From Escherichia phage 536_P3: 40,175 bases of DNA. The position numbers were made by a program, and so were the translations under genes. Shown piece by piece: positions 6,359 to 39,378 of this stretch (its first letter is position 1; each line of letters starts with the position of its first letter). The notes under the pieces are model-generated. The model was not told where the DNA came from. It worked only from the letters and a program-made list of their open reading frames with translations, and ran no database searches. The stretch lies in sequence record PQ227709; one strand, given 5' to 3'.

Positions 6359-6370
6359 CAAGCACTTAGC

Positions 6371-10054: not shown

Positions 10055-10756
10055 ATGGCTGGTTTCAAGAAGAAAATCTACACCTCTGGTCTTGGCACTG
10101 CTGAGCCTTATGCTTACCTGAGTAAGCCAGATTACGGCAACGAAGAGCGGGGCTTTGGCAACCCTCGTGGTATCTATAAGGTAGACCTGACTCTTTCCAA
10201 TAAAGACCCGCGCTGTCAGGCGATGGTCGATGAAATCGTGAAGACTCACGAAGAGGCTTATGCTGCTGCCGTGGAAGAGTTCGAGGCTAACCCGCCGCAG
10301 GCACAGCGTGGTAAGAAACCGCTGAAACCTTACGAGGGCGACATGCCGTTCTTCGATAACGGTGACGGTACGACTACCTTCAAGTTCAAATGCTATGCGT
10401 CTTTCCAAGACAAGAAGACCAAAGAGACCAAACACATTAATCTGGTCGTGGCCGATAGCAAGGGCAAGAAGATTCAGGACGTTCCGATTATCGGCGGCGG
10501 CTCTAAGCTGAAAGTGAAATACTCTCTGGTGCCTTACAAGTGGAACACAGCTGTGGGCGCAAGCGTCAAGCTGCAACTGGAGTCCGTGATGCTGGTCGAA
10601 CTGGCTACCTTCGGTGGTGGTGGCGGTGAAGATGAGTGGGCCGATGAAGTCGAAGATGGTGGTTACACTGCGAGTGAATCCCGTCAGTCCAGCGATGAGC
10701 AGGAGTGGCAGGAAGACGAGCACGAAGAAACCCCGGATGAGGATGAAGACTTTTGA
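10055..10756 (+). CDS. 2.5: Single-stranded DNA-binding protein
   Basis: 233 aa with acidic C-terminal tail ...EDEHEETPDEDEDF as in T7 gp2.5. Confidence 0.92.
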   Translation: MAGFKKKIYTSGLGTAEPYAYLSKPDYGNEERGFGNPRGIYKVDLTLSNKDPRCQAMVDEIVKTHEEAYAAAVEEFEANPPQAQRGKKPLKPYEGDMPFFDNGDGTTTFKFKCYASFQDKKTKETKHINLVVADSKGKKIQDVPIIGGGSKLKVKYSLVPYKWNTAVGASVKLQLESVMLVELATFGGGGGEDEWADEVEDGGYTASESRQSSDEQEWQEDEHEETPDEDEDF

Positions 10757-33300: not shown

Positions 33301-34299
33301 CTCCTAAACGGAACATCAAACTACATTCTTGATGCTGCCCGTCAGGGTGTTCTTGGGGATGTGGCTGGAGCGGCCCTTGCTGGGAAAGCCTCTAAGTTCG
33401 GTAAGGCAAACTACCTTAAGTCTGCCTCTATCAGCCCTGAGCAGTGGAATGGAATCAAGCAGTTGTTCAGAGACTATGCGACTCGTGGAGAAGACGGTAA
33501 GTTCACCATTCGTGACAAACAGGCTTTCGCTAACGACCCTCGGTCAATGGACTTGTGGCGGCTGGCTGACAAGGTGGCAGATGAGACTATACTGCGCCCT
33601 CACAAGGTTTCCTCACAGGACTCCAAAGCGTTCGGTGCAGGGGTGAAGATGGTGATGCAGTTTAAGAACTTCGTCATCAAGTCCCTTAACTCCCGGTTCG
33701 TCCGTAGCTTCTACGAGGCAACGAAGAACAACCGTGCGTTAGACCAAGCGTTGACTCATATCATCTCTTTGGGTCTAGCTGGTGGTTACTACGTTGCGCA
33801 GGCGCACCTTAAGGCCGCAAGCCTACAGGAGCACAAACGTAAGGAGTACCTTAAGAACGCCCTTGACCCTAAGATGATTGCTCATGCATCAATCTCTCGT
33901 AGTTCACACTTAGGCTCGCCATTGAGTATCTACGACATGTTCGCTGGGATGGTTGGTAGCGATACCTATAAGTACACCCGCTCTACGGTACTCCCTAAAG
34001 AGTCCGAGAAGCGTGACCCCAACAAGGCGGTGACAGGTAGACAGGTGGCTTCAACTATCGCGGGTGCAGTTGGTGAGCAGGTTCCGGGTTTAGGTTTTGT
34101 TGGCTCTGTAGGTGCAACAGCTATTAACGCCGCTTCCCTACTGTCTTCTCCAAACAAGGCTACCGCTCTGGAGTTCCGTACAGGACTCTTCAATACCTCT
34201 CGTGAGTTAATTCCTAATGACCCGCTCTCGCAGCAACTCATTATGAAAATCTACGAGGCTAACGGTATTCGCATCAAGGAGACGCCGAAGAAACAATAA
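30337..34299 (+). CDS. 16: Internal virion protein D with N-terminal lytic transglycosylase domain
   Basis: 1320 aa; N-terminal ...GPKGLMQFTKGTATALGL...AALAYNQGEG is an SLT-like motif as in T7 gp16. Confidence 0.92.
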   Translation: MSYDKNKPSEFDGLFQKAADNHGVSYDLLRKLAFNESSFNPKAKSPTGPKGLMQFTKGTATALGLKVTDADDDDRYNPELAVDAAARHLSDLIRKYDGDELKAALAYNQGEGRNGAPQIQAYDKGDWASISEEGRNYMRNLMDVANSPRKGDLEAFGGITPKAKGIPSGDAFAGIGKKQTVGTDLPESTGFKVEGKEQQAPNVPYAKDFWEKTGTTLDEFNSRSTFFGIGDATSAELHNSVLGVAFRAARSDDGFDLFKDTITPTRWNSHTWTPEELERIRKEVKNPSYINVVTGGSPENLDALIKMANDNYEMDARSADAGVGAKLTAGIVGAGVDPLSYVPLVGVAGKGLKVANKAFIVGTQSAGLAVASEGIRTSIAGGEAHYADAALGGLMFGAGMSAISDAIAAGIRRSRGTEVVNDFAPMAHRLEARETALNTGGEDLTRMPSENRVFDREHAGVEYSPLETEPGAIVLPQGQILSDTNPLNPQTLSEFEAVNPERAARGISLGGFTEIGLKTLRSENPTVRAIASDLVRSPTGMESGTSGKFGATASDIKERLHANNQRTYNQLYDAVRAAMKDPEFSTGGATMSRKEIRQEIYKRAALAIERPELQANLTKGERNVMNILKQHFDLKREIMENPSIFGNTKAVSIFPGSRHKGTYVPNVYDRAIKIEMVNRYGNDGLQRAIAESWLTSYRARPEVKARVDEYLMELNGLKSVQEVTPEMVQKHAMDKAYGISHTDQFSASSVIEDNIEGLVGIENNNFLEARNMFDSDMAVTLPDGNTFSVNDLRTYDMAEILPAYDRRVDGDVAIMGGSGKTTKDLKDEIMALDKQSEGNGTLKGEVEALKDTVKILTGRARRNPEGAWGTALRSVNDLTFFAKNAYMGAQNVTEIAGMLAKGNVSAITHGIPMINDWVNRGKPLRASEIKELHGMVFGKELDQLIRPGREDHVRRLRESTDTSAAVANVVGTIRFGTQELAARSPWTMLLNGTSNYILDAARQGVLGDVAGAALAGKASKFGKANYLKSASISPEQWNGIKQLFRDYATRGEDGKFTIRDKQAFANDPRSMDLWRLADKVADETILRPHKVSSQDSKAFGAGVKMVMQFKNFVIKSLNSRFVRSFYEATKNNRALDQALTHIISLGLAGGYYVAQAHLKAASLQEHKRKEYLKNALDPKMIAHASISRSSHLGSPLSIYDMFAGMVGSDTYKYTRSTVLPKESEKRDPNKAVTGRQVASTIAGAVGEQVPGLGFVGSVGATAINAASLLSSPNKATALEFRTGLFNTSRELIPNDPLSQQLIMKIYEANGIRIKETPKKQ

Positions 34300-34319
34300 A
34301 CCCTCACTAAAGGGAGAGA
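34296..34319 (+). promoter_or_regulatory. T3-type phage promoter (phi17)
   Basis: ataaaccctcactaaagggagaga. Confidence 0.75.
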
Positions 34320-34372
34320 GGTCACATTCTGGCCTCTTCTCTCTCTTAATGCTAATTTACAAAGGAGGTCAC

Positions 34373-36058
34373 ATGGCTACAACTATTAAGACCGTGATGA
34401 CTTACCCGCTGGATGGCTCCACTACGGACTTCAATATTCCGTTTGAGTATCTGGCGCGTAAGTTCGTCAGAGTGACCCTTATCGGTGTTGACCGAAAGGA
34501 ACTCATCTTGAATCAAGACTATCGTTTTGCAACTAAGACCACAATCTCCACAACGAGAGCATTGGGGCCAGCGGACGGTTATAACCTTATCGAGATTCGT
34601 CGGTATACCTCAGCTACTGAACGTCTGGTTGACTTTACGGATGGCTCAATCCTCCGTGCGTATGACCTGAACATCTCGCAGGTGCAGACCCTCCACGTTG
34701 CTGAGGAAGCTCGTGACCTTACCGCTGATACGATTGGCGTTAACAACGATGGCGACTTGGATGCTCGTGGTCGTCGTATCGTGAACGTTGCGGACGCTAA
34801 AGACCCCGGTGATGCAATAACTTTAGGCCAAGTCCAGAAGTGGAACGAATCCGCGCTGAACTCTGCGAACCGCGCACGGGCTGAGGCCGACCGTGCAACT
34901 GCGCGTGCTTCCGAGGCTGCTACCTCTGCGGGTAACTCTGCTAGTTCTGCAAGCCTGTCCCGTGATTGGGCTATCAAGGAATCGCCGGTGGAAGGAACCT
35001 TTAAGTCTTCCCGGTCGTATGCCCTTGACTCTATGGAGTACCGGGATGCGTCCAAGAGTTCTGCTGATGCTAGTGCTGCAAGTGCTGGTGCCGCTAAGAC
35101 CTCTGAGATTAACACGAAGAACTCAGAAATCGCCGCTAAGACCTCTGAGACCAACGCGAAGACCTCTGAGACCAACGCTAAGGCTTCCGAGGAACGAGCC
35201 ATTGAGGAAGCAAATAAGCTGGAGAACATGAACGATTTGGCTGGTGCAATCAAAGAGGTTCTCAAGCCAGAAGGTGCTACTTCGGGCAAGGTTGTGTGGA
35301 AATATGATATTGATAGTAAAGTCCTCCGCGCCTACAACGGTATGTCGATTGGTTGGGATTGGGACGGTACTGGTAGTCCATTCATGAATTTCTATCGTGG
35401 GAAGGACGCACCTCAAGGAACCCTTAGCGTTGACGTAGGAGAACTCAGACTGTCAAACATCGGAAGACTACGAGTACAAGCCCCACTAAACGTAGCGGGC
35501 GACTACACGCAGGACGCTGGTAGCGTATGGATTAACTCAGGAGGCTGGATTCATATGTCAAACCGAGTCCCCTCTGGTGGTAACGGTAATCGAACTCAGG
35601 GCATCTTCCTGATGAACGGAATGGGAAACAATGGTCAGCGCTCCGAGTATTTCTTGGAGGACAACGGTCAGCGTATGGCGCAACAACTCGTAGTCACCAA
35701 TGGCACTAACCAAGCGTGGTACACATTCGAGGAACACGGACTTGTCATGAACAAGAACATGCGCATTAGCTGGGGTGGTAGAACCGCCTCGTACCAAGAG
35801 AATGGTGACATCACTGGTCAGGGCATTATCTGGAGTGGCGGCTCACTGAGTGCCCATTGCAATCGCTTTCTCACTAACATCTGGATTGGTGCTGGACGTC
35901 AGCGGCACGTAGGACAACAGACTTGGGAAGGTTGGATTGACAATGGGTGCGTCATGCGTGGTATCAAGCAGATTCGTGCTGGTGGTGACTGCTTCATTGA
36001 GGAACTGTTCTTTAATGAAATGTGGAAAGGTACAGACGTAGGCCAGTGGATTATCTAA
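34373..36058 (+). CDS. 17: Tail fiber protein
   Basis: 561 aa from ATG 34373 (AAAGGAGG RBS; track ORF starts upstream at 34349); N-terminus MATTIKTVMTYPLDGSTTDFNIPFEYLARKFVRVTLIGVDRK matches the conserved T7/T3 gp17 N-domain; C-terminal half not recognised. Confidence 0.93.
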   Translation: MATTIKTVMTYPLDGSTTDFNIPFEYLARKFVRVTLIGVDRKELILNQDYRFATKTTISTTRALGPADGYNLIEIRRYTSATERLVDFTDGSILRAYDLNISQVQTLHVAEEARDLTADTIGVNNDGDLDARGRRIVNVADAKDPGDAITLGQVQKWNESALNSANRARAEADRATARASEAATSAGNSASSASLSRDWAIKESPVEGTFKSSRSYALDSMEYRDASKSSADASAASAGAAKTSEINTKNSEIAAKTSETNAKTSETNAKASEERAIEEANKLENMNDLAGAIKEVLKPEGATSGKVVWKYDIDSKVLRAYNGMSIGWDWDGTGSPFMNFYRGKDAPQGTLSVDVGELRLSNIGRLRVQAPLNVAGDYTQDAGSVWINSGGWIHMSNRVPSGGNGNRTQGIFLMNGMGNNGQRSEYFLEDNGQRMAQQLVVTNGTNQAWYTFEEHGLVMNKNMRISWGGRTASYQENGDITGQGIIWSGGSLSAHCNRFLTNIWIGAGRQRHVGQQTWEGWIDNGCVMRGIKQIRAGGDCFIEELFFNEMWKGTDVGQWII

Positions 36059-36069
36059 AGGAGGACGAT

Positions 36070-36480
36070 ATGGAAAAGATTTATGAGAACTTCAAGCAGT
36101 GCGAAGTTACCGATGAGTATCGTAAGGCCGTGGGCGCCCCTTCGGATGCCCGGTTCTTCATGGACGATGAGGGTAACGATTGGTATGACCTGATGTATAA
36201 GCTGGACAGTACCGGGAAGTATACCGTGGCATTCTACCCTGATGGCTACGTTTCCTACGCGGCTACCAAGGTGGCTGGTCATCATGGTTGCGATGGTTGC
36301 TCTGTGACGCAGGTAGACACCCTTCCGGGAGAGTTCAAGACTGGCGTCTATTGGTTCTTCAACCGCGAGACACATTCGGTGGAAGAGCGCGAGCGTCCTA
36401 CATATGAGGAACCTAAGCGCACCAAGGAAGACATTATGGCCGACCTGCTTAAACTACAGAAGGAGCTACAGGCTATGTAA
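36070..36480 (+). CDS. Hypothetical 136-aa protein between tail fiber and holin, no recognisable motif
   Basis: ATG 36070 follows AAGGAGG (36058..36064) directly after the gene 17 stop; the canonical T7 order is 17 then 17.5; MEKIYENFKQCEVTDEY...HHGCDGCSV...EDIMADLLKLQKELQAM. Confidence 0.7.
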   Translation: MEKIYENFKQCEVTDEYRKAVGAPSDARFFMDDEGNDWYDLMYKLDSTGKYTVAFYPDGYVSYAATKVAGHHGCDGCSVTQVDTLPGEFKTGVYWFFNRETHSVEERERPTYEEPKRTKEDIMADLLKLQKELQAM

Positions 36481-39354: not shown

Positions 39355-39378
39355 CATTAACCCTCACTAAAGGGAGAG
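39355..39378 (+). promoter_or_regulatory. T3-type phage promoter (phiOR)
   Basis: attaaccctcactaaagggagaga. Confidence 0.8.

Follow-up and report, generated by a model that had tools for sequence, protein, structure and literature searches.

A two-domain mechanism for fibre chaperones has been described for phage Mu and the cyanophage Pam3 (PMC9608196). Pam3 gp25 combines a variable, TfaMu-like N-domain, which binds the fibre, with a conserved helical C-domain, which trimerises, and the protein associates with the fibre in a 3:3 complex (PMC9608196). The Mu chaperone, gpU (TfaMu, PDB 5YVQ chain B), is encoded directly after the fibre gene and is likewise built of an N-domain that varies and a helical C-part that is conserved. 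For T7-like phages, a figure legend from the BASEL collection (PMC11990801, S7 Fig) describes a Mu-like Tfa, Gp60, downstream of the fibre gene of Teseptimavirus EmilieLinder, for which AlphaFold-Multimer predicted a hexameric assembly with the fibre like that of Mu. This legend is the only literature that we found on Tfa proteins in Teetrevirus or Studiervirinae.

The locus compared here lies in Escherichia phage 536_P3 (sequence record PQ227709), from which a stretch of 40,175 nucleotides was analysed (the window). The first 25 kb of the window are 95–96% identical to Teetrevirus (T3-like) phages of Klebsiella, Pantoea, Citrobacter and Salmonella. Between the tail fibre gene (gene 17) and the holin gene (gene 17.5) lies an ORF whose product is, with little doubt, a tail fibre assembly protein (Tfa), a short-form chaperone for the gene 17 fibre of the Mu gpU/lambda Tfa kind. 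The features referred to below are as follows.

34295..34317, plus strand: T3-type phage RNA polymerase promoter (phi17 equivalent) upstream of gene 17, with one mismatch to AATTAACCCTCACTAAAGGGAGA
34373..36058, plus strand: gene 17, tail fibre, 561 aa (Pfam Phage_T7_tail, E 1e-58)
35360..35842, plus strand: divergent distal segment of the fibre, residues about 330–490, no more than 31% identical to any sequence among 50,697 phage records
35846..36055, plus strand: fibre tip, the last ~70 residues (...NIWIGAGRQRHVGQQTWEGWIDNGCVMRGIKQIRAGGDCFIEELFFNEMWKGTDVGQWII), putative binding site of the chaperone
36058–36064, plus strand: ribosome-binding site AAGGAGG, ending 5 nt upstream of the ATG, as the sequence itself shows
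36070–36480, plus strand: ORF of the probable chaperone, 136 aa and 15.8 kDa, from ATG 36070 to TAA 36478–36480
36070..36393, plus strand: N-terminal domain of this protein, residues 1 to about 108, with a TfaMu-like fold; candidate fibre-tip binder
36418..36480, plus strand: C-terminal amphipathic helix, residues 117–136 (RTKEDIMADLLKLQKELQAM), and stop codon
36521..36724, plus strand: gene 17.5, T7-type class II holin (Pfam Phage_holin_2_2, E 1e-32; PHROG 920, E 2e-30)

Residues 1–314 of the gene 17 product (ORF residues 9–322) align with residues 1–291 of T7 gp17 (7BOZ, E 6e-83). We place the start of gene 17 at ATG 34373 (MATTIKTV...), since an AAGGAGG at 34361–34367 and the T7 gp17 alignment both support it over the in-frame ATG 34349, 24 nt upstream (MLIYKGGH...), which is the start used in the GenBank records of VSG32, KPP-5 and Leclercia phage 10164-302. 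The gene ends in TAA at 36056–36058, leaving a gap of 11 nt to the ATG of the ORF, and the last base of this stop codon is shared with the ribosome-binding site of the ORF. A mechanical ORF list starts the ORF at GTG 36022, within gene 17; we take 36070 instead because the ribosome-binding site favours it. Upstream starts that overlap gene 17 are also found in deposited records of the chaperone gene (L001, 2977–3411; L002, 2453–2917; L004, 2318–2797), with products of 145–160 aa as against 128–138 aa. Downstream, the holin gene sets the limit of the inserted slot and is followed by genes for the small terminase subunit, the spanins Rz and Rz1, and the large subunit of the terminase. The holin genes of T7 and T3 come straight after the fibre gene, with a gap of 58 nt, and the ORF is therefore extra relative to both type phages. 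A preliminary description of this DNA had given the canonical order as 17 then 17.5, correctly for both T7 and T3, and had reported an ORF with a strong AAGGAGG and ATG just past the gene 17 stop, which is confirmed. It had also called the product mildly acidic with a C-terminal helix; both points are borne out by a pI of 4.8 (26 acidic versus 17 basic residues) and by a predicted structure in which residues 119–135 are helical (pLDDT about 96) and the whole 136-aa protein folds with high confidence. Homologues at E<=1e-3 occur in 49 phage records and, together with the confident fold, they establish the ORF as a real gene and not a chance reading frame.

Eleven T3-type promoters lie on the plus strand of the window (at 6370, 6712, 8415, 12188, 14004, 18985, 21523, 22558, 27014, 34295 and 39355), with 0–3 mismatches to the T3 consensus and none expected by chance, which confirms that the specificity of the phage RNA polymerase is T3-type. 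The promoter at 34295 precedes gene 17 and the next one is that at 39355, while neither a promoter nor a convincing terminator was found between gene 17 and the ORF. The two genes would thus be carried on one late transcript, since the promoter lies upstream only and nothing separates them. The phi17 transcript is predicted to begin with a 9-bp stem-loop at 34316–34338 (GAGAGGTCA...TGGCCTCTT), which a CT-rich run follows. This stem-loop could stabilise the 5' end as a hairpin or mark a site of processing.

The family to which the protein belongs was identified through profiles. Single-sequence searches of Pfam, NCBIfam and PDB sequences gave noise only (DUF1654 at E 0.18, an alpha/beta hydrolase at E 0.6), with no NCBIfam match, and a word-indexed homologue search retrieved four close relatives only, the distant ones requiring an exhaustive search of representatives. 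The protein matches PHROG 136, 'tail fiber assembly protein', at E 7.4e-13, with residues 3–134 on profile positions 3–133 of 178. A search of 1.84 billion representative proteins with a profile built from the window protein and four close relatives returned 35 at E<=0.001, of which about two dozen are 100–145 aa long with the same C-terminal motif; it also reaches several proteins of 170–180 aa that pass Pfam Caudo_TAP. Two homologues found in this way illustrate the connection: P0009 (profile E 1.2e-12) scores 27.5 bits against a Caudo_TAP cut-off of 22.1 and is 46% identical to the window protein across 107 residues, and P0037 matches Caudo_TAP at E 3e-30. In the PDB, the top match of a profile made from short forms only is the Mu Tfa (5YVQ_B, E 0.0033), and the same match reaches E 1.2e-13 after canonical members are added. 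The preliminary description could match the protein to no T7/T3 protein or domain; the PHROG 136 hit and the link to Caudo_TAP-positive proteins now supply a match, and the sensitive profile search that it had named as a check leads, through the Mu Tfa, to a known family of fibre chaperones. Its list of accessory functions did include a fibre accessory protein, which stands, while no support was found for the anti-defence, exclusion or receptor-modifying genes listed beside it.

The N-terminal domain has the TfaMu fold, a central beta-sheet packed by helices, and holds an invariant W38-Y39 (DEGNDWYDL). The canonical C-domain, which consists of two helices and a ...W..YR..L.RVD...WP... end, is present in part, the second helix and that end segment being missing. 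The protein gives no match to Pfam Caudo_TAP (PF02413) at E<=1 and lies below its gathering threshold of 22.1 bits, which six other proteins do reach (five homologues that the profile search retrieved, and the protein of LL2). Because it falls short of both the model and a complete C-domain, we class it as a short-form relative (PHROG 136, TfaMu fold) and not as a Caudo_TAP member.

We can thus compare the protein with the described chaperones in some detail. First of all, TfaMu and the window protein share the gene position directly after the fibre gene and the arrangement of a variable N-domain before a conserved helical C-part. Their similarity is at the level of profiles, with 12% identity, and TfaMu is a protein of 175 aa with a two-helix C-domain, whereas the window protein has 136 aa and one helix. 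TfaMu also serves the fibre of a myovirus and the window protein the gp17 fibre of a podovirus, and no similarity was detected between the two fibre tips. Second, the lambda/P2-type Tfa proteins (Caudo_TAP) are homologous in the N-terminal domain, P0009 being an example, and the Caudo_TAP proteins of the T3-like phages LL2 and Leclercia phage 10164-302 are full-length and occupy the same slot between gene 17 and 17.5; the window protein, on the other hand, scores below their Pfam model and lacks the C-terminal segment. Third, Pam3 gp25, with which the comparison is by description only, has a multi-helix bundle in place of one helix. Finally, EmilieLinder Gp60 resembles the window protein, again by its description in the legend, in being a separate Tfa encoded after the fibre gene.

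The closest relatives, 96–99% identical to the window protein and equal to it in length, occupy this slot in seven deposited genomes of Teetrevirus phages of Klebsiella or Pantoea (ViciousJeremy, PoeticCupcake, VSG32, Kpn-11mx, Emp27, VR4605 and Pantoea F5M1C). They differ from it by one to six residues and come with the same fibre tip, and the corresponding protein of KPP-5, in the same slot, is 80% identical. Homologues of 30–45% identity fill this slot in other Teetrevirus, in Berlinvirus, Ningirsuvirus and Erwinia phages and in metagenomic T7-like contigs, and the order of fibre then chaperone on the same strand recurs in 9 related loci. The comparison with relatives that the preliminary description had envisaged thus finds the gene at the same locus across these groups. 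Its suggestion that the gene is undescribed does not hold, since near-identical proteins are deposited and three of them already carry the name: 'tail fiber assembly protein' in ViciousJeremy and PoeticCupcake and 'putative tail fiber assembly protein U' in VSG32. The gene is therefore of a known kind, with the right name already present in the databases on near-identical entries.

The remaining close records are labelled 'hypothetical protein' or 'ssDNA binding protein', and the latter raises the question of whether the protein binds single-stranded DNA. The labels themselves (Emp27, KPP-5, VR4605, VAC1, HZP2) are what speaks for such a function, which we regard as wholly improbable: searches of Pfam, PHROGs and NCBIfam match no SSB family, a separate gene of the window at 10055–10756 encodes its gp2.5-type SSB (PHROG 112, E 7e-56), and the fold is that of TfaMu. 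The 'ssDNA binding protein' label looks like a propagated mis-annotation.

The relationship between the protein and the fibre is most clearly seen in the structure of the fibre itself, which is a three-part mosaic. Residues 1 to about 330 are 83–100% identical to several Teetrevirus fibres. Identity over residues about 330–490 falls to 10–30%, even in comparison with phages whose chaperone is 97% identical; this segment differs from those of all seven close Teetrevirus relatives, is uncoupled from the type of chaperone and is probably the host-specificity part. The last ~70 residues, the tip, follow the chaperone instead. Between the window and VSG32, the tip is 79% identical and the preceding 180 residues are 33% identical, while the N-part of the chaperone is 97% identical; the tip is likewise 79% identical in KPP-5. 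VSG32 and MegaDucksbill give the reverse picture, with 16% identity in the last 70 fibre residues, 88% in the preceding 180 and 27% in the N-part of the chaperone. Over the 45 pairs formed by 10 loci, the Pearson correlation of identity is 0.87 between tip and chaperone and 0.49 between mid-fibre and chaperone. In agreement with this, a tblastn search with the last 100 fibre residues retrieved, out of 50,697 records, exactly the eight whose chaperone is at least 80% identical (query residues 11–100, 68–70% identity), besides a weak partial match in Sodalis phage phiSG1.

The pairing is also found at a greater distance. In a metagenomic contig (L012, from Logan ERR12350108; 3728–5356), the gene for a short fibre whose tip is related to that of the window precedes the gene for the canonical Tfa P0009. 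The last 115 residues of this fibre are 30% identical to the window tip and have the same ...WII end, and it is the N-domain of P0009 in which the 46% identity to the window protein lies. The contig carries a baseplate wedge gene and is therefore not T7-like, and its Tfa is followed by a holin of a different family (Phage_holin_3_1), so the arrangement of fibre, Tfa and holin also exists outside T7-like phages. Given the co-variation, the co-occurrence in eight records and the pairing in L012, tip and chaperone N-domain move together between phage types. Such joint movement is what the Mu/Pam3 model (PMC9608196) would predict, by analogy, for an N-domain that binds the fibre.

These data also bear on the proposal in the preliminary description that the gene is a moron, an independent accessory gene inserted at the fibre/lysis junction with a role in anti-defence, superinfection exclusion or receptor modification. 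The absence of the gene from T7 and T3 and the varying content of this site among related phages fit such an insertion. Inheritance is, however, tied to the last ~70 fibre residues and is thus not independent, the gene lacks a separate promoter or terminator, and by both fold and sequence family the protein belongs with the fibre chaperones. PADLOC, whose library covers defence and not anti-defence, gave no match. We therefore consider a typical moron insertion very improbable and retain the fibre chaperone.

Just before the exchangeable tip, members of the family carry the stretch DGNI.G..W.GKWL (NGDITGQGIIWSGGSL in the window, ~35780–35840). It is the sole match of the distal fibre to T7 gp17, at residues 434–474 (4A0T, E 1.7e-5), and is a plausible recombination joint for cassettes of tip plus chaperone. 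A profile of the fibre C-termini did not find the Mu fibre (5YVQ) when searched against the PDB, and their match to Pfam was limited to a weak one to gp37_trimer (E 0.017, 3/10 members).

The second part of the protein, its short C-terminus, differs from the described chaperones but is strongly conserved. The retained motif, RTKEDIMADLLKLQ.EL, is the most conserved part among short forms: R117, K119, I122, D125, L126, L129, E132 and L133 are each shared by 25 or more of 27 homologues with N-domains of only 25–50% identity. In alignments, the helix falls on the first of the two in the canonical Tfa C-domain, and its hydrophobic positions 122, 126, 129, 133 and 136 follow a heptad pattern that is apparent on direct reading of the sequence. 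In its first 19 codons, six of seven homologues differ from the window by 8–12 synonymous and 2–6 non-synonymous changes, and the near-identical VSG32 by 3 synonymous and 0 non-synonymous ones. The excess of synonymous changes shows that the helix is conserved through selection on the protein and not through recently shared DNA.

The last ~45 positions of both the Caudo_TAP and PHROG 136 profiles have no counterpart in the window protein, and it could be thought that this is a decaying remnant, a canonical Tfa that has lost these C-terminal residues, no longer works and is carried passively with the acquired tip. This seems scarcely credible for a short form that is conserved over several genera with a nearly invariant helix, whose codon differences are mostly synonymous in six of seven comparisons, and which retains a strong ribosome-binding site and a confidently folded model. 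A working short-form chaperone thus remains the preferred reading, and its C-terminal helix may serve as the oligomerisation module; as the canonical C-domain is only partly present, oligomerisation by a single helix is an extrapolation.

One may speculate further that T7-like phages (Studiervirinae and at least one more distant Autographiviridae-like contig) own a minimal module, a single amphipathic helix of ~20 residues (RTKEDIMADLLKLQEEL), which is kept with the backbone while N-domains and tips are swapped in from other phages, including those with a baseplate. The occurrence of a related N-domain with a canonical C-domain elsewhere (P0009 in L012) is in line with this proposal, which we nevertheless put forward as tentative. 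If true, it would be the smallest known Tfa assembly module and would offer a ready-made adaptor with which T7/T3 scaffolds could be given new fibre tips. In itself, the conserved C-terminus of a single helix is only a mildly new point.

By analogy with the Mu and Pam3 systems, the protein could act in the following way. It would be made late, from the phage-polymerase transcript that it has in common with gene 17. The N-terminal domain, which extends to about residue 108, would bind the C-terminal tip of the fibre chains, which here would be a different tip of ~70–115 residues gained by recombination in place of the self-folding tip domain of T7 and T3. The C-terminal helices (residues 117–136) would then associate between copies of the chaperone and so align three fibre C-termini, allowing trimerisation of the fibre to start at the tip and to run towards the N-terminus. 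The present comparison establishes homology, fold, gene position, inheritance together with the fibre tip and selection on the helix; physical binding, the 3:3 stoichiometry and the need of the fibre for the chaperone in order to fold are inferred from the work on Mu and Pam3.

A related question is where the protein goes after assembly. It is possible, and compatible with a chaperone role, that virions retain it on the fibre tip, where it would belong to the receptor-binding structure and help to determine host range, although we hold this to be somewhat doubtful. Mature particles of Ur-lambda and Mu contain their chaperones, TfaMu remaining on the distal fibre, whereas Pam3 gp25, also TfaMu-like, is absent from virions (PMC9608196); both outcomes therefore occur in the family. 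The exchange of the variable N-domain along with the fibre tip would suit a receptor-binding part. The part of the fibre without a close relative, on the other hand, is residues 330–490 and not the tip with its chaperone, which points to host specificity residing elsewhere.

For annotation, the assignment as a fibre chaperone means that the gene is due the name tail fibre assembly protein, in place of 'hypothetical' or 'ssDNA-binding protein', and that it is no candidate for anti-defence. For swaps of gene 17 tips in T3/T7-type Klebsiella phages, it implies that the chaperone, or at least its N-domain, must accompany the last ~70–115 fibre residues, and the natural mosaics mark the joints at which fibre tips are exchanged. 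The single-helix C-terminus, in turn, raises the small question of how little of a Tfa suffices.

The preliminary description had also drawn attention to an HHGCDGC motif. It is indeed present, at residues 71–77 of the 136-aa protein, but as a motif it is not conserved: of 27 short-form homologues, 1 has H71, 10 have H72, and C74 and C77 are found in 5 each, and G76 alone is conserved. A metal-binding or zinc-ribbon protein was considered and rejected, the Cys/His ligands not being conserved among these homologues, and an alignment of GHHGCDGC to 'carbonic anhydrase' (E 0.8) is a chance match to the same non-conserved stretch. At positions 11 and 71, where R stands in all four aligned close relatives, the window protein has C and H, respectively. 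These two changes, which create the apparent 'HH' and a third cysteine, are probably neutral.
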